Shown one piece after another: positions 7,092 through 60,549 of a DNA stretch of 64,000 nucleotides. Numbering within the stretch: the first letter of the stretch is position 1; every line of letters starts with the position of its first letter. Source of the DNA: Escherichia coli (GTDB lineage: Bacteria; Pseudomonadota; Gammaproteobacteria; Enterobacterales; Enterobacteriaceae). Where the stretch lies: NCBI RefSeq assembly GCF_002854065.1, contig NZ_CP024147.1. The stretch is one strand, 5' to 3'. Made by a program: the position numbers and the translations under genes. The notes under the pieces were generated by a model, which was given only the letters and a program-made list of their open reading frames with translations, had not been told where the DNA came from and searched no databases.

Positions 7092-7350
7092 GCCGGAGGC
7101 GACGCTGCGCGTCTTGTCCGGCCTACGAGAGTGTAGGTCGGATAAGGCGTTTACGCCGCATCCGACAATCGGCGCACCCTGCCGGAGGCGATGCTTACGC
7201 GTCTTGTCCGGCCTACGGAAATGTAGATCGGATAAGGCGTTTACGCCGCATCCGACATTCGGCGCATCCATGCCGGAGGCGACGCTGCGCGTCTTGTCCG
7301 GCCTACGAGAGTGTAGGTCGGATAAGGCGTTTACGCCGCATCCTACAATC
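7092..7350. repeat. Three tandem ~90-bp REP/BIME units in gabT-gabP spacer
   Basis: Unit gccggaggcgacgctgcgcgtcttgtccggcctacg...cggataaggcgtttacgccgcatccg repeated three times with few substitutions; classical REP palindromes. Confidence 0.9.
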
Positions 7351-13718: not shown

Positions 13719-13845
13719 TGAGACGATGACAAGCAGTAGTCTGACTTCTGAAAAGTACTCAGTGCGTCAACGCCTTGTCCGCCTACAGGCCTGAAAAACA
13801 TAGCGCATCAGGGGATTTTGCCCTGGTCACCAGTCTTATAGGACC

Positions 13846-13862
13846 CCGAAGCCTGGCTTCGG
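13846..13862. terminator. Perfect palindrome ccgaagcc-t-ggcttcgg between convergent ygaM and MocR-type gene
   Basis: 8-bp perfect inverted repeat; flanking U-runs weak. Confidence 0.4.
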
Positions 13863-13867
13863 AGTTA

Positions 13868-15202
13868 TTAATTTAAAGCACTGCGCAATTGCTGTGCTAC
13901 CTGTCGCGCCATACTTTCGCTAACGATATTCGTAAACGAGAGCAATAATCCTCCGTCCTCGCTTGAGCGGATACGCCAGTCGCTAAGTGCCTGTACGGCA
14001 AGACCAGCAGCATTGGCTTTATGCACGAATGTCACGTCATTACCTGCTAGTTTGATCACCATCTGGATACCGCCTTTTTGCGGCACAACCTGAAATCCCT
14101 GCTGCGTAAGTGCCTGCTCAATCCACTGCCGTCGCTGGGCATAATGCTGGCGCATTTTCTTCAGATGCCGCCAGAAATGCCCCTCACGGATGAAATCTGC
14201 CAGTGTGTTCTGCCACAGTACGGGTACAGCACATGGTTCCAGTGACGCCTGCTGCCGGAATTGCGAAATCTGCTCCACCGGCACCACCAGCCACGCACAG
14301 CGCAATGCAGGAAATAGCGCTTTGCTGAATGTTCCGGCATAAATCACCCGCTGCGGCGCGTCGAGACTTTTTAGTGCCGGTAACGGCTTACCGTGATAGC
14401 GAAACTCACTGTCGTAATCATCTTCAATAATCCATGCCTGACTACGCTCTGCCCATTCCAGTATCTGATACCTACGCGCTAAAGAGAGTGCCACACCCAG
14501 CGGGCTTTGGTGTGCCGGAGTAATCAGGGCAAAACGCGCATCAGGATAATTTTGTATTCCGCTTGTGACATCCAGTCCGTTGTCATCAACCGGCACAGGT
14601 AAAATTTCCAGACCGTGGCGAGTGACAATCGGGCGAATCAGCGGAAAGCCGGGATCTTCCATCCACATCCCGTCTCCCGGTTGCGCCAGAGCGTGCAGAA
14701 TTAAAGCCATTGAGGCCGCATAACCGTGAGTGATAAAGACCTGCTCTGGCTGACAATCAATCCCACGTGAAACGCGTAAATAATCAACAATAGCCTCGCG
14801 CAAGGCCGCCTCGCCGCAGACATCACCTAATGCCAAATCAAAACGCGTCTGGGTACGCAGACGGCGGCCCATCACCCGCGCCCACAATTCACGCGGAAAA
14901 AGATCAAGTGCAGGTAGCCCCATCTGAAAAGGCAGCGGCTGCTGACTTTCACCAGCAAAAGCCACGACATCCACAGCAGACTGTTGCGGATGTATCTGCT
15001 CACTGACAAAGGTACCCGCCTGTCCCCGCCTGACCAGCCATCCCTGCGCCACCAGCTCAGCATAAGCATTTTCGACAGTGGATCGAGAGACACCCAGCTC
15101 CTGCGACCAGGTACGGCTCGAGGGTAGCCTTGCGCCAGGTTTCAGTTCTCCTTGCTCGATAGCCGTTTTTAACTGACGGGCGATATCCTGATAACGTGGC
15201 AT
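13868..15202 (-). CDS. MocR/GabR-type transcriptional regulator (N-terminal GntR HTH fused to a large C-terminal domain of aminotransferase size)
   Basis: 444-aa ORF; N-terminus MPRYQDIARQLKTAIEQGELKPGARLPSSRTWSQELGVSRSTVENAYAELVAQGW is a GntR HTH followed by a ~350-aa domain; divergent from next gene. Confidence 0.8.
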   Translation of the reverse strand: MPRYQDIARQLKTAIEQGELKPGARLPSSRTWSQELGVSRSTVENAYAELVAQGWLVRRGQAGTFVSEQIHPQQSAVDVVAFAGESQQPLPFQMGLPALDLFPRELWARVMGRRLRTQTRFDLALGDVCGEAALREAIVDYLRVSRGIDCQPEQVFITHGYAASMALILHALAQPGDGMWMEDPGFPLIRPIVTRHGLEILPVPVDDNGLDVTSGIQNYPDARFALITPAHQSPLGVALSLARRYQILEWAERSQAWIIEDDYDSEFRYHGKPLPALKSLDAPQRVIYAGTFSKALFPALRCAWLVVPVEQISQFRQQASLEPCAVPVLWQNTLADFIREGHFWRHLKKMRQHYAQRRQWIEQALTQQGFQVVPQKGGIQMVIKLAGNDVTFVHKANAAGLAVQALSDWRIRSSEDGGLLLSFTNIVSESMARQVAQQLRSALN

Positions 15203-15289
15203 ATGGTCTGCTTTTTTAGGTAATTTATGGCTCTCTTTAGCAGTCCATTATAGTGCTACATTGCGGGCGTTAATAAGAGGAGAAACTGT

Positions 15290-15721
15290 ATGACTACATT
15301 ACGTCAGCCTTACTACGAACTTAGCCCGGCAGTGTATAACGCACTGGTGCAGGCCAAAACGGCACTGGAAAATAGCACGCTGGATACCACGTTGATGGAG
15401 TTAATTTATTTGCGCGTCTCGCAAATCAACGGCTGCGCATTTTGTCTGGAGATGCACAGCAAAGCATTGCGCAAATCCGGTGTGCCACAACACAAACTGG
15501 ACGCCCTGGCAGGCTGGCGCGTAAGCCATCATTTTGATGAACGCGAGCGAGCGGCGCTGGCATGGGCGGAATCAGTGACCGATATTGCCAGAACCCATGC
15601 GGAAGACGAGGTTTATCAGCCTTTGCTTGAGCATTTCAGCGCAGCAGAAATCAGCGATTTAACGTTTGCCATCGGGCTGATGAATTGTTTTAACCGTCTG
15701 GCCGTTTCCATGCGGATGTAA
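15290..15721 (+). CDS. Carboxymuconolactone decarboxylase / AhpD-like family protein
   Basis: 143-aa ORF with CxxCxxxH-type motif (GCAFCLEMH) typical of AhpD-core proteins; divergent from the MocR-type regulator. Confidence 0.75.
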   Translation: MTTLRQPYYELSPAVYNALVQAKTALENSTLDTTLMELIYLRVSQINGCAFCLEMHSKALRKSGVPQHKLDALAGWRVSHHFDERERAALAWAESVTDIARTHAEDEVYQPLLEHFSAAEISDLTFAIGLMNCFNRLAVSMRM

Positions 15722-15929
15722 TTTGCTGTTGCCGGGTATGCGCCCGGCAAAAAAACACAAAATCCCCTACCCCGTTGAGCCATTCACCGGTGGCGTAATC
15801 AATCTAAAATTCCCATATCTTGTGTGGTTGAATCTTTTTTCAACTACATCTAGTATCTCTGTATCAACAGAGAGACAACCCGACGCGTATCATCGCGCCG
15901 TATCTTCATTTTAAACGGAAATACGAATC

Positions 15930-23339: not shown

Positions 23340-23425
<86 letters not shown>

Positions 23426-29369: not shown

Positions 29370-29376
29370 GGTTGTC

Positions 29377-29401
29377 AAAGGGAGCTTCGGCTCCCTTTTT
29401 A
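29377..29401 (+). terminator. Rho-independent terminator after emrB
   Basis: aaagggagc-ttcg-gctccc followed by TTTTT. Confidence 0.8.
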
Positions 29402-29626
29402 TTTGCTCATTGTGCAAACGGTTGTTTTATCCACTCATTCGGTGTATCTTTTCGCCGCCCCAAACTCTTCCATTCACTATTAACCGGTTCTGAGCATTCG
29501 CTCAGGTTGTTAATTCTCTTTTTCCTTCGCCCTCGCTTTCGCGGGTGATACTCACATTTTCCGTTTAACCCCATAACTCGCACCCTCGCGGGCGTACGTT
29601 TATTACACACAAAATAATGGATTATT

Positions 29627-30334
29627 ATGAATACCCAACTTAAATACGGGAGAACCTGGCATTATCCTTTCTCCCCCGGCACCACCAGCGATGACCGCAT
29701 TAACGCCGATTACTGGCAGGATTTACAGGCCATCGCGCAACTGGTGCATACAGAAAAACTCGACGGCGAAAATAACTGCCTTAACCGCTACGGTGTGTTT
29801 GCCCGTTCCCATGCCGCGCCTACGCAGTCGGCATGGACCTATAAAATTCGCCAGCGTTGGCAACTGCTGAAAAACGATCTCGGCGACCTGGAGTTGTTTG
29901 GCGAAAATCTCTACGCCGTTCATTCCATTGAATACCGCGCGCTGGAACAGGACTTTTACCTGTTTGCCGTTCGCTGCCAGGATATGTGGCTGAGCTGGGA
30001 AGAGGTGCAGTTTTACGCCGCCCTGTTTGATTTCCCCTGCGTTCCCGAAATCTCCGGCCCGCAGCCGGGGAATGATGAAAAAAGCTGGCAACGTGATTTT
30101 CTGGCACTGACCAATGCGCGCGGCGCGTTCGATCCCTGGGATACACAAACCGGGCAACCCTGTACTCTGGAAGGCATTGTCAGCCGGAATCGTGATGCGT
30201 TTTCCGTCGCTGACTTTTCGCATAACGTCTTCAAGTATGTGCGCAAAAATCATGTCAAAACCACTGTGCACTGGAAACGACACTGGCAACGGGCGCGGAT
30301 GGCCCATGAGTTCGCTTATGGAGAACAGTCATGA
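29627..30334 (+). CDS. ATP-dependent RNA ligase-like nucleotidyltransferase (Rnl2-type catalytic domain only)
   Basis: 235-aa ORF with covalent nucleotidyltransferase motifs in canonical order and spacing: motif I EKLDGEN, motif [12 protein letters not shown], motif IV LEGIVSR, motif V FKYVRK. Confidence 0.75.
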
Positions 30335-31443
30335 TTTGGCAGCTTACCGACGATAAACGCTGGTCGACACTACGCCAGCGTTTCAGTTGGGTTGAGGAGA
30401 TGCATCACACGCCACAAGACCCGGAGCATCATGGTGAAGGTGACGTCGGCGTGCATACCGAAATGGTGCTTAACGCCCTTGTTACTCAGCCAGAATTCCA
30501 GCAACTCCCCGCTCAACAGCAGGAAGTTTTATGGGCGGCGGCGTTATTACATGATGTTGAAAAGCGCAGCACTACCGTGCAGGAAAACGGACGTATTCAG
30601 TCGCCGGGCCATGCTCGTCGGGGCGAACTGACGGCCCGGCTGATTTTGTGGCGCGATATCCCAACGCCGTTCGTGCTGCGCGAGCAAATCGTTGCGCTGG
30701 TGCGTCTGCATGGGTTACCGCTATGGTTACTGGAACGTCCGGAACCGGAGCGTTTGTTGCTCACGGCTGCAATGCGCATCGACACGCGTCTGCTCACTTT
30801 GCTTGCTCGTGCCGATCTGCTTGGTCGCCAAAGCCCGGATCAGCAATCAATGCTGGAACGCATCGATCTGTTCGAGCTGTTTTGCCAGGAGCAACAGTGT
30901 TGGGGAAAAGTGCGCTCGTTCGTGTCTGATTCCGCACGCTGGCATTACCTGACCCATGAGCAAAGTTCTCCTGATTTTGTTCCCTGGGAGGCTGAACCTT
31001 TTGAGGGCATTTTGCTGTGTGGCTTACCGGGTATGGGCAAAGATCGCTATATCAATGAACAGTGCCAGGGAATGGACGTTATCAGCCTTGATGATATGCG
31101 GCGGCGAATCAATGCCAATCCGGACGACAAAACCGCCACCGGGCGTATTGTGCAACAGGCAAAAGAAGAGGCACGCGTTTTTTTACGCCAGAAAAAGCCG
31201 TTCATCTGGAATGCAACGAACTTTACCCGCCAGCTTCGTAGCCAGCTCATCAGCCTGTTTACGGCTTACGGCGCACGAGTAAAAATAGTTTATCTTGAAG
31301 TGCCATGGGCGCAATGGAAGCAGCAAAATGCCAGACGCGAGTATGCAGTTCCTGAAGCGGTCGTGATGCGGATGGCCTCAAGGCTGGAAGTTCCTCAACC
31401 TGATGAAGCACATAGCGTGGAGTATCGGGTGATTGAAAGGTAA
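30331..31443 (+). CDS. Bifunctional HD-domain phosphoesterase / 5'-OH polynucleotide kinase (HD-Pnk architecture)
   Basis: 370-aa ORF; N-terminal HD metal-ligand pattern ([18 protein letters not shown], further His and Asp); C-terminal P-loop GLPGMGKD followed by [17 protein letters not shown] and [16 protein letters not shown], resembling the T4 Pnk kinase domain; start overlaps upstream stop (ATGA). Confidence 0.75.
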
Positions 31444-31448
31444 AAAAA

Positions 31449-31474
31449 CCGGGCGGTGGTGTCACCTGCCCGGC
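31449..31474. terminator. Bidirectional hairpin terminator between HD-Pnk gene and convergent luxS
   Basis: ccgggc-loop-gcccgg stem flanked by A-run upstream and T-rich run downstream. Confidence 0.6.
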
Positions 31475-31491
31475 TTCTTTTGTTCCACTGA

Positions 31492-32075: not shown

Positions 32076-32148
32076 GAAAGACGCGCATTTGTTATCATCA
32101 TCCCTGAATTCAGAGATGAAATTTTGGCCACTCACGAGTGGCCTTTTT
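32076..32148 (+). ncRNA. micA: MicA (SraD) small regulatory RNA
   Basis: Sequence gaaagacgcgcatttgttatcatcatccctgaattcagagatgaaattttggccactcacgagtggccttttt recognised as MicA, including the terminator hairpin and U-tail. Confidence 0.9.
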
Positions 32149-35057: not shown

Positions 35058-35134
35058 TGGTGCATCCGGGAGGATTCGAACCTCCGACCGCTCGGTTCGT
35101 AGCCGAGTACTCTATCCAGCTGAGCTACGGATGC
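35058..35134 (-). tRNA. argQ: tRNA-Arg (anticodon ACG)
   Basis: Reverse complement gives GCATCCGTAGCTCAGCTGGATAGAGTACTCGGCTACGAACCGAGCGGTCGGAGGTTCGAATCCTCCCGGATGCACCA; gene name assigned by position in the array. Confidence 0.95.
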
Positions 35135-35236
35135 ATCGGGAAAATTTATTTTACTGCTGATATTGATATCGCTACTAAAGCCATATCAAATAAGAAAATC
35201 CATCTTAACCATCATCACTGATGATTACGGAGAATA

Positions 35237-35313
35237 TGGTGCATCCGGGAGGATTCGAACCTCCGACCGCTCGGTTCGTAGCCGAGTACTCTATCCAGCT
35301 GAGCTACGGATGC
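35237..35313 (-). tRNA. argZ: tRNA-Arg (anticodon ACG)
   Basis: Identical 77-nt tRNA-Arg copy. Confidence 0.95.
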
Positions 35314-35375
35314 ATCGGGAAATTTATTTTACTGCTGATATTGATACCGCTACTAAAGCCATATCAAGTAAGAGA

Positions 35376-35452
35376 TGGTGCATCCGGGAGGATTCGAACC
35401 TCCGACCGCTCGGTTCGTAGCCGAGTACTCTATCCAGCTGAGCTACGGATGC
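35376..35452 (-). tRNA. argY: tRNA-Arg (anticodon ACG)
   Basis: Identical 77-nt tRNA-Arg copy. Confidence 0.95.
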
Positions 35453-35516
35453 ATCGGGAAACTTACTTTACTGCAGATTTTTTGATACCGCTACTAAAGC
35501 CGTATCAAGTAAGAGA

Positions 35517-35651
35517 TGGTGCATCCGGGAGGATTACTCGCCTTGCGGCTCGCCCTTCGGGCCGTTGCTAAAGCAACGTTATCCTCCCTGGTGCCTGCGG
35601 TTAGTACCGCCACCTCTTCCATACCTTCATCGCTGAAGGTTACGGAGAATA
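35517..35651 (-). repeat. Spacer element B beginning with a tRNA-Arg 3'-end fragment (copy 2 of 2)
   Basis: tggtgcatccgggaggatt then a diverged copy of element A with the same internal palindromes. Confidence 0.7.
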
Positions 35652-35728
35652 TGGTGCATCCGGGAGGATTCGAACCTCCGACCGCTCGGTTCGTAGCCGA
35701 GTACTCTATCCAGCTGAGCTACGGATGC
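35652..35728 (-). tRNA. argV: tRNA-Arg (anticodon ACG)
   Basis: Identical 77-nt tRNA-Arg copy. Confidence 0.95.
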
Positions 35729-35731
35729 AAA

Positions 35732-35824
35732 TGGCGGTGAGGCGGGGATTCGAACCCCGGATGCAGCTTTTGACCGCATACTCCCTTAGCAGGGGAGCGC
35801 CTTCAGCCTCTCGGCCACCTCACC
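35732..35824 (-). tRNA. serV: tRNA-Ser (anticodon GCU), long variable arm
   Basis: Reverse complement gives GGTGAGGTGGCCGAGAGGCTGAAGGCGCTCCCCTGCTAAGGGAGTATGCGGTCAAAAGCTGCATCCGGGGTTCGAATCCCCGCCTCACCGCCA. Confidence 0.95.
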
Positions 35825-47187: not shown

Positions 47188-48145
47188 AGCACTACTGAAC
47201 GCGGGACGTCAGACGTTAATGCTGGAGTTGCAGGAAGCAAGCCGCTTACCGGAACGTCTGGGCGATGATTTTGTTCGCGCCGCCAATATCATCCTGCACT
47301 GCGAAGGCAAAGTGGTGATTTCGGGAATTGGCAAATCGGGCCACATTGGTAAGAAAATCGCCGCAACGCTTGCCAGTACTGGCACACCGGCTTTTTTTGT
47401 CCATCCGGCAGAAGCACTGCACGGCGATCTGGGGATGATCGAAAGCCGCGATGTGATGCTGTTTATTTCTTACTCCGGTGGCGCGAAGGAACTGGATCTG
47501 ATTATTCCGCGTCTGGAAGATAAATCTATCGCGCTGCTGGCGATGACCGGCAAACCGACGTCACCGCTGGGCCTGGCGGCGAAAGCGGTGCTGGATATCT
47601 CCGTAGAACGCGAAGCCTGCCCGATGCACCTTGCGCCGACCTCCAGCACCGTCAATACCCTGATGATGGGTGACGCGCTGGCGATGGCGGTCATGCAGGC
47701 GCGCGGATTTAATGAAGAAGATTTTGCCCGCTCCCACCCAGCCGGGGCACTGGGCGCTCGCTTGCTGAATAAAGTGCATCATCTGATGCGCCGTGATGAC
47801 GCTATCCCGCAGGTAGCGTTAACCGCCAGCGTGATGGATGCGATGCTGGAACTCAGCCGCACCGGTCTGGGGCTGGTGGCGGTATGTGACGCTCAACAAC
47901 AGGTACAAGGCGTCTTTACCGACGGCGATTTACGTCGCTGGCTGGTTGGCGGCGGCGCACTCACCACGCCAGTTAATGAAGCGATGACGACAGGCGGTAC
48001 CACATTACAGGCACAAAGCCGCGCCATCGACGCCAAAGAGATCCTGATGAAGCACAAAATCACTGCCGCACCGGTGGTAGATGAAAACGGCAAACTCGTC
48101 GGCGCAATTAACCTGCAGGATTTCTATCAGGCCGGGATTATTTAA
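47180..48145 (+). CDS. gutQ: D-arabinose 5-phosphate isomerase GutQ (SIS + CBS domains)
   Basis: 321-aa ORF; stop codon overlaps norR stop on the opposite strand. Confidence 0.95.
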
Positions 48146-49656
48146 TCCTTCAATCCCAGACGTTTCGCCAGCCGATGCAGGTTGGCGACGTCGGTTTCCA
48201 GCATTCGCGCGCAGGCTGCCCAGTTGTGATGATTTTGTGCCAGTGCCTGACGAATAGTTTCACGCTGGAACGCTTCTGTCGCTTCACGCAGGTTTTGCTT
48301 AACAACGGGCACCGCCGCCGCTTCTGGCGGCGGTAACGTCACCTCAGGAAAAGCAAAATGTTGCGCCTCAAGAATCACTTCATCGCCGTTGCGGGTGGCT
48401 CTCGCCAGAACTACCGCCCGATGAATAGCATGTTCCAGTTCGCGCACGTTTCCCGGAAAACTGTAGTGTTGCAGTAAATTTCGCGCTCCGGCACTTAATA
48501 CCACGCGGGAGAGCCCCTGCCGCAAACGACACTGCTCGCAGAAATACCCCGCCAGCAGAATGACATCATCGCCCCGCTCACGCAGCGGCGGCACCGAAAG
48601 TGGAAACACGCTCAGGCGGTGGAACAAGTCAGCGCGAAATCGCCCTGCCAGCACCTCTTCGCGTAAGTCGCGGTTAGTCGCCGCCAGCACGCGCACATCG
48701 ACCCGCAAACTACGGTCATCGCCAACGCGCTGAATATCGCCATACTGCAACACCCTCAGCAGCTTGGCCTGCAATGCCAACGACAACTCGCCGATCTCAT
48801 CCAGAAACAGCGTGCCGTTATCCGCCATTTCAAACTTCCCACTGCGGTTACTGATAGCGCCAGTAAACGCTCCTTTCACATGCCCGAACAACTCACTTTC
48901 CGCCACACTTTCCGGCAGTGCGGCACAGTTGAGATAGACCAGCGGATTCACCGCCCGTGGCGAGGCCTCATGAATCGCTTTCGCCACCAGCTCCTTACCG
49001 GTTCCCGTCTCACCGCTGATCAGGACGTTGAGATCGGACGCCGCCACAATCTCAATCTCTTTTTTCAGTTGCGTCATGCCAGGGGACAAGCCAATCATCT
49101 GCGTCTGTTTCACCGCTTCAAATGGAGCGGCATCGCCCGGCAACATATTCTGGCTTTCCAGTTGCTCAATCAGCAACGCATTGCTTAACGCTCCCGCCGC
49201 CAGCGCGGCAATCAGGCGTAACTCTTCGTCGCTGAAAACATCGAACTGATCGGGCTGCATCCCGTCGAGCGTCAATGCGCCGATCAGGTTTTGCCCGGCA
49301 AACAGCGGCAGACCAACGCAGGCGTGAACCTTCAGACTCTCCTGCCCTGGAATCAAACCGTCATAGGGATCGGGCAATTCGCTGTCTGCGGGAAAGCGCA
49401 CCACATCACCCGCGCGGGCAATCGCTTCCAGCCGTGGATGACCTTCCAGCGCAAAGCGTCTACCGAGTACATCCTTCGCCAGCCCGTCGATGGCAAGCGG
49501 AATAAACTGCCGCGAGTCGTAACGTAGCAACGCAGACGCATCGCACTCCAGCACCTGACGCAGCGTGGTGATCAGGCGCTGAAAACGATCCTGATGACCA
49601 ATCCCACGCTGCAATTCGATGGCGATATTCGCCAGCACATCAACGGAAAAACTCAT
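48142..49656 (-). CDS. norR: Sigma-54-dependent NO-responsive activator NorR
   Basis: Sequence [28 protein letters not shown]... with AAA+ sigma-54 activator motifs ([14 protein letters not shown]); ORF track start is an upstream extension. Confidence 0.95.
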
Positions 49657-49668
49657 CTTTGCCTCACT

Positions 49669-49724
49669 GTCAATTTGACTATAGATATTGTCATATCGAC
49701 CATTTGATTGATAGTCATTTTGAC
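49669..49724. promoter_or_regulatory. Three NorR enhancer sites (GT-N7-AC inverted repeats)
   Basis: gtcaatttgac (49669-49679), gtcatatcgac (49690-49700), gtcattttgac (49714-49724). Confidence 0.85.
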
Positions 49725-49779
49725 TACTCACTAATGAGCATAATTTTATTTATAGAGTAAAAACAATTAGATAAAAAAC

Positions 49780-49795
49780 TGGCACGCAATCTGCA
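49780..49795 (+). promoter_or_regulatory. Sigma-54 promoter of norVW (-24 GG / -12 GC)
   Basis: tggcacgcaatctgca matches TGGCAC-N5-TTGCA about 45 nt upstream of norV ATG. Confidence 0.85.
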
Positions 49796-49842
49796 ATTAG
49801 CAAGACATCTTTTTAGAACACGCTGAATAAATTGAGGTTGCT

Positions 49843-51282
49843 ATGTCTATTGTGGTGAAAAATAACATTCATTGGGTGGGTCAACGTGACTGGGAAGTGC
49901 GTGATTTTCACGGCACGGAATATAAAACGCTGCGCGGCAGCAGCTACAACAGCTACCTCATCCGCGAAGAAAAAAACGTGCTGATCGACACCGTCGACCA
50001 TAAATTCAGCCGCGAATTTGTGCAGAACCTGCGTAATGAAATCGATCTGGCGGATATCGATTACATCGTGATTAACCATGCGGAAGAGGACCACGCCGGG
50101 GCGCTGACCGAACTGATGGCACAAATTCCCGATACGCCGATCTACTGTACTGCCAACGCTATCGACTCGATAAATGGTCATCACCATCATCCGGAGTGGA
50201 ATTTTAATGTGGTGAAAACTGGCGACACGCTGGATATCGGCAACGGCAAACAGCTCATTTTTGTCGAAACACCAATGCTGCACTGGCCGGACAGCATGAT
50301 GACTTACCTGACAGGCGACGCGGTGCTGTTCAGTAACGATGCTTTCGGTCAGCACTACTGTGACGAGCATCTGTTCAACGATGAAGTGGATCAGACGGAG
50401 CTTTTCGAGCAGTGCCAGCGTTACTACGCCAATATCCTGACGCCGTTCAGCCGCCTGGTAACGCCGAAAATTACCGAGATCCTAGGCTTTAACTTACCAG
50501 TCGATATGATAGCCACTTCCCACGGCGTGGTATGGCGCGATAACCCGACGCAAATTGTCGAGCTGTACCTGAAATGGGCGGCTGATTATCAGGAAGACAG
50601 AATCACCATTTTCTACGACACCATGTCGAATAACACCCGCATGATGGCTGACGCTATCGCCCAGGGGATTGCGGAAACCGACCCACGCGTGGCGGTGAAA
50701 ATTTTCAACGTCGCCCGAAGCGATAAAAACGAAATCCTGACCAATGTCTTCCGCTCAAAAGGCGTACTGGTCGGCACTTCGACGATGAATAACGTGATGA
50801 TGCCGAAAATCGCCGGGCTGGTGGAGGAGATGACCGGATTACGCTTCCGTAACAAACGCGCCAGTGCTTTCGGCTCTCACGGCTGGAGCGGCGGTGCGGT
50901 GGATCGTCTTTCCACGCGCCTGCAGGATGCGGGTTTCGAAATGTCGCTTAGCCTGAAAGCGAAATGGCGACCAGACCAGGACGCTCTGGAGTTATGCCGT
51001 GAACACGGTCGCGAAATCGCCCGTCAGTGGGCGCTCGCGCCGCTGCCGCAGAGCACGGTGAATGCGGTAGTTAAAGAAGAAACCTCTGCCACCACGACGG
51101 CTGACCTCGGCCCACGGATGCAGTGCAGCGTCTGCCAGTGGATTTACGATCCGGCAAAAGGCGAGCCAATGCAGGACGTTGCGCCAGGAACGCCGTGGAG
51201 TGAAGTCCCGGATAACTTCCTGTGCCCGGAATGCTCCCTCGGCAAAGACGTCTTTGACGAACTGGCATCGGAGGCAAAATGA
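49843..51282 (+). CDS. norV: Anaerobic nitric oxide reductase flavorubredoxin
   Basis: 479-aa [35 protein letters not shown]... with C-terminal rubredoxin CxxC pairs. Confidence 0.96.
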
Positions 51283-52412
51283 GCAACGGCATTGTGATCA
51301 TTGGTTCGGGCTTCGCCGCCCGCCAACTGGTGAAAAATATTCGCAAACAGGACGCCAGTATTCCATTAACCCTGATTGCCGCCGACAGCATGGATGAGTA
51401 CAACAAACCTGACCTCAGCCATGTTATCAGTCAGGGGCAACGTGCCGACGACCTTACCCGCCAGACGGCGGGTGAATTTGCCGAGCAGTTTAATCTGCAC
51501 CTGTTTCCGCAAACCTGGGTGACGGATATCGATGCCGAAGCCCGTGTGGTGAAAAGCCAGAATAATCAGTGGCGATACGACAAGCTAGTGCTGGCAACCG
51601 GTGCCAGCGCCTTTGTCCCGCCAGTGCCTGGGCGTGAGTTAATGCTGACGTTAAATAGTCAGCAAGAGTATCGCGCCTGTGAAACGCAACTGCGGGATGC
51701 CCGACGCGTGTTGATTGTTGGCGGTGGTTTGATTGGTAGCGAACTGGCGATGGATTTTTGTCGTGCAGGCAAAGCGGTCACGCTAATCGACAACGCTACC
51801 AGTATTCTGGCGTCGTTAATGCCACCGGAAGTAAGCAGCCGCTTGCAGCATCGGTTGACGGAGATGGGCGTTCATCTGCTGTTGAAATCTCAGTTGCAGG
51901 GGCTGGAAAAAACGGATTCTGGCATTGTGGCAACGCTGGACCGCCAGCGTAGTATCGAAGTGGATGCGGTAATTGCCGCCACCGGACTGCGCCCGGAAAC
52001 CGCCCTGGCACGACGCGCTGGGCTGACGATTAATCGCGGCGTTTGCGTCGATAGTTATCTGCAAACCAGTAATGCCGATATTTACGCGCTGGGCGATTGC
52101 GCGGAAATTAACGGTCAGGTACTGCCGTTCCTGCAGCCGATTCAACTTAGCGCGATGGTGCTGGCAAAAAATCTTCTCGGCAATAACACGCCGCTTAAAC
52201 TACCGGCGATGCTGGTGAAAATCAAAACGCCGGAATTACCGCTGCATCTGGCAGGCGAAACCCAGCGTCAGGATTTACGCTGGCAAATTAATACCGAACG
52301 CCAGGGAATGGTGGCGCGCGGCGTTGACGATGCTGACCTGCTTCGCGCCTTTGTGGTCAGTGAGGATCGGATGAAAGAGGCATTTGGATTGTTGAAAACG
52401 TTGCCGATGTAG
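51279..52412 (+). CDS. norW: NADH:flavorubredoxin reductase
   Basis: 377-aa [28 protein letters not shown]... (FAD/NAD binding). Confidence 0.96.
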
Positions 52413-55472: not shown

Positions 55473-55621
55473 CAAATTCTCCAGCTATGACAGTTAATGC
55501 GCCGATACATTCACAAATTATGCCAGTTTTTAATTAACTGTTATTTAAGGAAATTAATTTCTGTAATGCAGGAAAAAAAGATGTCATCGACACTAGTGAC
55601 GATGACATGTGATGACAATGT

Positions 55622-59875: not shown

Positions 59876-59896
59876 TGGATTGGCATCAGTCAAAAA

Positions 59897-60314
59897 TCAA
59901 AGAAACCATTCAGGCTTAACGCCAAATCGGGCTGAAAGTGCCTTAATGTGGGATATCGTCAGGGATCGTTGTCCAGACAAGATCTGGCTGACCAGGGATT
60001 TAGAACCGATTTCGTTCTTCAAATCCGCATAGTCAGATTATGTTGATCAATCAGCGTACGAAGTAACGCTACGCCAACCGGCATTGCCGCAACGGCTTTG
60101 TCGAACTCTGCAAACTTTTCGTTGTTGTTTTCATATTCTGCAATGCGGCTCGCCAGAAAGTCGATAAGTGGATTGGTGTCATCTTCTTCAATCAATATTC
60201 GACCAGTTCCAGTGCTTCACGATAATCATCTTCTGAGTCACTGCCTCCCAGAAAGGGGACTGCATTGACCAGTTCTCTTGTTGCTTTAACAGCGCGTGCA
60301 GCATTAGCAGTCAT
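59897..60314 (-). pseudogene. HigA-like (HTH-XRE) antitoxin gene remnant with two frameshifts
   Basis: Three reading-frame segments together resemble E. coli HigA: MTANAARAVKATRELVNAVPFLGGSDSEDDYREALELVEY / LIEEDDTNPLIDFLASRIAEYENNNEKFAEFDKAVAAMPVGVALLRTLIDQHNLT / YADLKNEIGSKSLVSQILSGQRSLTISHIKALSARFGVKPEWFL. Confidence 0.6.
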
Positions 60315-60549
60315 TCTTTGTTCTCTCTGTAGTATCGTATCAGACGCCCACTTTTCTAAAATGCCAGGTTTGCTCGGCATCATAAGGCATGGTCAGGAGA
60401 GGTTTCAGCGCCCGCTTTTGCGCATATTCGCTGTCACTCATTGGCAGATATTCGGTAAAGCTGGTGGCCTGTGCAGGCAGCACTAAGCTCAATAAAAAAG
60501 CGCACATCCCTGTTCTGATGTTCAATTCCCTGAATTCCCTAATGAAGAA

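Follow-up and report, generated by a model that had tools for sequence, protein, structure and literature searches.

The norR–norVW regulatory region of an Escherichia coli strain and its likeness to that of K-12

The NorR-controlled norVW genes of Escherichia coli belong to one of the best-characterised sigma-54 enhancer/promoter systems, and a further instance carries little weight as a discovery. In K-12, NO-inducible transcription of norVW depends on both norR and rpoN (PMC2831303). Tucker et al. 2010 (PMC2831303) printed the sequence of a 66-bp oligonucleotide, ‘NorR123’, as the minimum DNA with three NorR sites, and used it in assays of NorR binding and ATPase activity. Changing any one of these sites from GT-N7-AC to GG-N7-CC abolished norV-lacZ induction, removed the ~40-fold enhancer stimulation of the NorR ATPase and led to the loss of open-complex formation at low NorR concentration (PMC2831303). 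With longer flanking DNA, NorR formed ring-shaped oligomers consistent with hexamers, and IHF was stated to bind in the interval from the NorR sites to the norV start (PMC2831303). The same authors compared this architecture with TyrR boxes, where three neighbouring dyad sites are likewise proposed to bring three dimers together as a hexamer (PMC2831303). By contrast with NorR, TyrR responds to aromatic amino acids and works mostly as a repressor, at sigma-70 promoters; the likeness is thus one of analogy and not of membership. As for the promoter, sigma-54 ChIP-seq in K-12 identified a site upstream of norV, OS25, with a PSSM score of 12.27, a predicted start 37 bp from norV and a flag for experimental confirmation in EcoCyc (Bonocora et al. 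2015, PMC4591121). In the NorR protein itself, R75, D96, D99, C113 and D131 are the proposed iron ligands (PMC4601167), and R81 is critical to interdomain repression (PMC2941729).

Taken from this literature, the switch would operate as follows. Three NorR dimers would assemble on the three GT-N7-AC palindromes into a DNA-bound hexamer, with the participation of flanking DNA, while sigma-54 RNA polymerase would wait in a closed complex at the -24/-12 promoter. IHF would bend the AT-rich spacer so that the hexamer contacts this polymerase. [quoted passage not shown] ATP hydrolysis would then lead to the open complex and, in the sequence studied here, to transcription of norVW from about position 49806, yielding the NO reductase. 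Outside E. coli, the same norR–norVW arrangement has been described in Salmonella, Erwinia and Vibrio (Rodionov 2005), in agreement with the 17-sequence alignment presented below. The NorR-dependent hmp/fhp and norB/norA promoters of Pseudomonas, Vibrio cholerae and Ralstonia differ in their target, which is a flavohaemoglobin or a respiratory NO reductase and not norVW.

The locus and its three proteins

The sequence that we analysed (hereafter, the window) is a 64-kb stretch extending from the ypjC/gab region to hycD. According to the ORF coordinates, positions 49657-49842 constitute the entire 186-bp intergenic region between the divergent norR and norV, bounded by start codons at 49656 (minus strand, norR) and 49843 (plus strand, norV). 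It is AT-rich, with a GC content of 31.7% as compared to 52.2% for the whole window. On one side, norR (48142-49656, minus strand) codes for a sigma-54-dependent enhancer-binding protein of 504 aa, an NO sensor with GAF, AAA+ and HTH domains, which matches the NCBIfam equivalog NF003451 with 824 bits (cut-off 476) over residues 2-503. On the other side, norV (49843-51282, plus strand) codes for the full-length flavorubredoxin NO reductase (479 aa, all of them aligned to NF003954 with 1047 bits for a cut-off of 711), followed by norW (51279-52412, plus strand), which codes for the NADH:flavorubredoxin reductase (377 aa; NF003437, 680 bits, cut-off 392). The start of norW overlaps the stop of norV (ATGA), which implies that both genes are translationally coupled and form one operon. 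The genes follow the standard order gutQ–norR–norVW–hypF, and the RefSeq annotations of K-12 and of the closest genome name the same genes here. A 301-bp query spanning the gap retrieved the same locus, annotated norR/norV each time, from 5425 of the 5426 complete E. coli genomes, so the window derives from an E. coli chromosome; the match to strain PapM-32-1 was 100% identical. The genes for the other actors of the mechanism, rpoN, ihfA and ihfB, are not encoded within the 64-kb window.

None of the three proteins contains internal stops. Compared to K-12 MG1655, NorV has three substitutions and no deletions, and NorR has five (T177A, C316S, S423N, T443P and V446A). NorR retains a Walker A motif from residue 215, GAFTGA at 262-267, a Walker B motif from residue 283 and the C-terminal HTH, as well as all five iron ligands and R81. 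The five ligands are invariant even among NorR proteins of only 44-49% identity, while the three proteins that we inspected among the NorR proteins that do not control norVW, which are ~45-50% identical, have A in place of R81. Serine at position 316 is also the residue found in the 13 other enterobacterial NorR proteins sampled, with the sole exception of Morganella (P), so that the cysteine of K-12 is the exception; positions 177, 423, 443 and 446 vary freely among the NorR proteins sampled.

Elsewhere in the window, the sequence is not collinear over its full length with PapM-32-1, its best-matching genome, and BLAST comparison revealed three extra segments. A 2.1-kb segment in the emrB–luxS interval (29371-31486), missing from this closest complete genome, contains two overlapping plus-strand ORFs: a 235-aa protein of the RNA_ligase family (29627-30334; PF09414, 99 bits) and a protein of 370 aa whose C-terminal part is an AAA_33/polynucleotide-kinase-like P-loop domain (30331-31443; PF13671, 110 bits). 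Judging from these domains, the two ORFs look like an RNA-repair-type ligase and kinase pair; a PADLOC search of the segment gave no match. The second strain-variable segment, also of 2.1 kb (13721-15814, nrdH–ygaM area), has no counterpart at this place in PapM-32-1. It encodes a MocR/PdxR-like GntR-aminotransferase regulator (13868-15202, minus strand; NF052282, 417 bits) and, divergent from it, an AhpD-family protein (15290-15721, plus strand). The third (59890-60528, ~640 bp) adjoins hycI, occurs at full length in 1416 of 5426 genomes and is annotated in other E. coli as an HTH-domain protein and a hypothetical protein. The window also contains an array of tRNA genes on the minus strand (35058-35824; four Arg(ACG) and one Ser(GCT)) whose internal spacing differs from that in PapM-32-1, the MicA sRNA (32076-32147, plus strand) adjoining luxS, and three matches to naRNA4 (REP-type) repeats at 7136-7303 and 23342-23419 (plus strand).

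Enhancer, promoter and a second action of the NorR sites

An earlier note on this DNA, made from the sequence alone, had proposed that the norR–norV divergent region contains three GT-N7-AC NorR sites followed by a sigma-54 promoter. Three such inverted repeats are indeed found, in tandem and upstream of the promoter, as the control region of an E. coli-type norVW requires: GTCAATTTGAC at 49669-49679, proximal to norR and centred at about -132 from the predicted transcription start; GTCATATCGAC at 49690-49700, 21 bp further on (centre at about -111); and GTCATTTTGAC at 49714-49724, proximal to norV and 24 bp from the middle site (centre at about -87). The proposed order, norR, three sites, promoter and norV, held, with the boundaries 49657-49842 exact to the base. 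The upstream block that includes the three sites (49664-49729, plus strand) is an exact copy of the 66-bp NorR123 fragment, which matches the window exactly at this single place.

A fourth palindrome of similar form, GTCAACGTGAC (GTCA-N3-TGAC), lies 38 bp past the norV ATG at 49880-49890, in codons 13-16, and we rejected it as a NorR site because its defining T (that of ‘GT’) is the freely varying wobble base of Gly13, which differs in 10 of 15 other sequences (the codons being GGC, GGA, GGG and GGT) and is not kept in other genera, whereas the GQRD peptide encoded across it never changes. Read at the codon level, the palindrome appears as a by-product of that conserved peptide. The published primer norRpromR stops partway into it.

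The promoter claim stood as well, although not to the letter. The -24/-12 core TGGCACGCAATCTGCA (TGGCAC-GCAAT-CTGCA) occupies positions 49780-49795 on the plus strand, downstream of the NorR sites and directed towards norV. The string TGGCAC-N5-TTGCA given by the earlier note has no exact match here, and its one match, at this promoter, includes a single mismatch: its -24 element TGGCAC was correct, but the first base of its -12 element was not, as the region reads CTGCA, which is the wild-type sequence of E. coli (K-12, OS25). Since it is shared with K-12 and with a published in vivo sigma-54 site, this C cannot be regarded as a defect. The complete 17-mer CTGGCACGCAATCTGCA (49779-49795, plus strand; -24 GG at 49781-49782 and -12 GC at 49793-49794) is identical to that of OS25. 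By the rule of Bonocora 2015, which yields a prediction and not a mapped position, norVW transcription would start at 49806 (plus strand), 19 bp downstream of the motif centre, leaving a 5′ UTR of 37 nt. A norV Shine-Dalgarno sequence, GAGG, is located at 49834-49837 (plus strand), 5 nt before the ATG, in a region (TGAGGTTGCT) that is kept in most of the aligned enterobacteria. At the gathering thresholds, Rfam detected no RNA family in the intergenic region. A second sigma-54 promoter occurs in the window upstream of hydN–hypF (55510-55526, minus strand); its sequence, CTGGCATAATTTGTGAA, is one mismatch away from the K-12 ChIP-seq motif OS26, CTGGCATGATTTGTGAA.

All this closely mirrors the norR–norVW region of K-12 MG1655 (b2709/b2710), which has the same genes and the same 186-bp length, 183 of these 186 bases being identical. 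Identity to K-12 extends over each of the NorR sites, the enhancer block of 66 bp, the sigma-54 17-mer, the 5′ UTR and the ribosome-binding site; the three substitutions all fall in the spacer, downstream of the norV-proximal NorR site and before the -24 box. The earlier note had also considered the NorR/sigma-54 module for norVW complete, and as far as sequence can tell it appears to be so, with the three NorR sites, the sigma-54 promoter, a candidate IHF site and the three genes in place in versions identical or nearly identical to those of K-12. We put the probability that this region is the canonical norR–norVW control region of E. coli, one characterised before, at about 0.96. The feature is known in full detail and is ordinary here. 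Given that these elements and genes are correctly placed and identical or nearly so, we strongly infer that the module would work in this strain as it does in K-12.

An additional role, compatible with this reading, is that the same three sites act on the other strand, bound NorR repressing the transcription of norR. The sites (49669-49724) are directly upstream of the norR start at 49656 and, since they lie 13-68 bp upstream of the norR ATG, negative autoregulation is probable on positional grounds. A weak negative autoregulation of norR was reportedly described by Hutchings in 2002. The K-12 RefSeq record calls NorR a ‘dual regulator’, and negative autoregulation has been proposed through a NorR site upstream of norR2 in Vibrio (Rodionov 2005). 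Against it, a consensus scan found no sigma-70-type norR promoter on the minus strand of the gap; its single match overlaps sites 2 and 3 and is oriented along the plus strand. Weighing both sides, we give this additional role an even chance.

Variation of the spacer within E. coli

The polymorphism of the region is unevenly distributed. As block-level counts of exact matches among all complete E. coli genomes, the 60-bp enhancer core (49667-49726) is exact in 3748 of 5423 records and the 65-bp block from the promoter to the ATG in 3978 of 5426, while the 55-bp spacer is exact in only 35 of 5426 genomes and that of 1555 genomes is too different to seed a megablast match. In the two strains with a variant enhancer block that we inspected, the changes (49706 and 49710) affect the DNA that separates site 2 from site 3 and leave every site intact.

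The three non-K-12 bases of the window (relative to MG1655) are C for T at 49731, A for G at 49737 and T for C at 49768. The C at 49731 was absent from the four other E. coli strains aligned; the other two bases also occur in CFT073, a strain with NO-inducible NorVW activity (PMC5320621). The polymorphic spacer also includes a candidate IHF bending site, AAACAATTAGATA (49761-49773, plus strand, centred at about -39), which has two mismatches to WATCAANNNNTTR and whose position we derived from a motif scan. K-12 has the same number of mismatches at this core because the variable position 49768 is one of the non-specific N4 positions. Most norR–norV gaps of other genera come closer to the IHF consensus, with an ATCAA core where Escherichia has AACAA. 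ATCAA is found at the aligned position in 11 of 17 sequences, with a perfect consensus in, for example, Citrobacter, and it is also found in E. coli AF57.

This rare spacer haplotype could in principle be a natural tuning variant that changes IHF bending, and hence the threshold or amplitude of norVW induction by NO, while leaving enhancer and promoter untouched; we consider this very improbable, and an effect of the haplotype on induction strength is unlikely. It is also very improbable that the parts are complete but the module is attenuated or non-functional, be it through altered IHF-mediated bending by the haplotype (49731 C, 49737 A, 49768 T), through the NorR substitutions or through missing trans-acting factors. 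The rarity of the exact spacer, the location of 49768 inside the IHF-like core and the five differences between this NorR and that of K-12, one of them (316) two residues away from the RVDVR arginine-finger region, might suggest such a defect. However, 49768 belongs to the non-specific N4 part of the IHF consensus, two of the three bases are those of the NO-responsive CFT073, the spacer varies both within E. coli and between genera and so appears tolerant of change, and serine at 316 is the norm among enterobacteria, with free variation at the other four NorR positions. As to trans-acting factors, rpoN and the IHF genes are core E. coli genes.

Chance matches and conservation in other species

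The individual motifs are weak evidence by themselves. The window has 211 copies of GT-N7-AC where 185 +/- 14 are expected, and four clusters of three within 60 bp are found, three of them in addition to the norR–norV cluster; with GT-N7-AC alone at chance level, we did not rely on bare-motif counts. With one mismatch allowed, TGGCAC-N5-TTGCA is expected ~1.8 times per window. A stricter form of the site, GTCA-N3-YGAC, is enriched (12 occurrences versus 3.3 expected), although this pattern was derived from these same sites. The composite behaves differently: a trio of sites inside 60 bp, with TGGCA-N7-TGC 30-120 bp further downstream, has a single instance in the window, and 300 dinucleotide-preserving shuffles produced none. 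The case rests on the identity to NorR123, the identity to the ChIP-seq 17-mer and an arrangement that is conserved beside norR in other genera.

To place the locus in a wider taxonomic frame, we scanned one genome per species, ~100,000 species in all, for the DNA pattern of three GTCA-N4-GAC sites with similar spacing. This yielded at least 120 loci, which should be taken as a sample and not as a census. Among the matches listed, tblastn located the end of a NorR-type GAF gene within 113 bp of the three-site cluster in 29 of 120 loci, 16 of which also encode norV. The 13 listed loci that lack norV belong mainly to Pseudomonas and to Burkholderiales/Comamonadaceae, and have a NorR-type GAF gene (44-49% identity) no more than 113 bp from the cluster. 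The remaining 91 of the 120 listed matches are not beside norR and include, for instance, repeats in Bacteroidales MAGs and sequences of high-GC actinobacteria, so the three-site pattern alone is not specific; the adjacency of the cluster to norR, for its part, cannot be due to chance. In Bacteroides, Parabacteroides and Prevotellaceae, the matches correspond to tandem repeats, several copies per locus, with no norR nearby.

We aligned the 16 norR–norV gaps with that of the window (17 sequences). The norR-proximal site is kept in all 17, but these loci were selected by the pattern of the sites, so that the cross-species conservation of the sites is partly circular. The promoter was absent from the search pattern: TGGCAC is present in 16 of the 17 gaps and TGGCAT in the other one. 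Also outside the pattern were the ATCAA core, ~15 bp upstream of TGGCAC in 11 of the 17, and the GAGG ribosome-binding site, both of which align at fixed positions. The rest of the spacer is not conserved among the 17 gaps. In the Enterobacteriaceae E. albertii, Citrobacter, Kluyvera, Enterobacter, Pseudescherichia and Pseudocitrobacter, and in Morganella (order Enterobacterales), norR and norV are divergent and separated by 180-221 bp, with three GTCA-N4-GAC palindromes at spacings similar to those of E. coli, TGGCAC placed at a constant distance and a ribosome-binding site GAGG. The -12 element of norV differs among them, being CTGCA in Escherichia, Citrobacter, Kluyvera and Pseudocitrobacter and TTGAT in six Enterobacter/Pseudescherichia loci and in Morganella. 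In the TTGAT promoters the usually near-invariant GC of the -12 element is thus replaced by GA, as it is in the hydN promoter of E. coli.

The idea that the motifs match by coincidence, with GT-N7-AC and a near-consensus -24/-12 element so short that any AT-rich intergenic region might contain them in no regulatory role, agrees with the chance-level counts, the other triple clusters, the expected one-mismatch promoters and the many listed matches away from norR, but it is refuted by the identity to experimentally validated K-12 elements (the assayed 66-mer and the 17-mer bound in ChIP-seq), by the shuffles, and by a block located exactly between norR and norV in an arrangement conserved beside norR in several genera, and we regard it as extremely improbable.

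The canonical norR–norVW region thus remains our reading of this DNA. Its value is that of a positive control, as a reading of the raw sequence placed a real regulatory module at its exact coordinates. The contrast between a polymorphic spacer and stable sites illustrates where selection acts in an enhancer-dependent promoter. For the strain itself, the gene and element content suggests that it carries an intact NO-detoxification switch, with a full-length norV.
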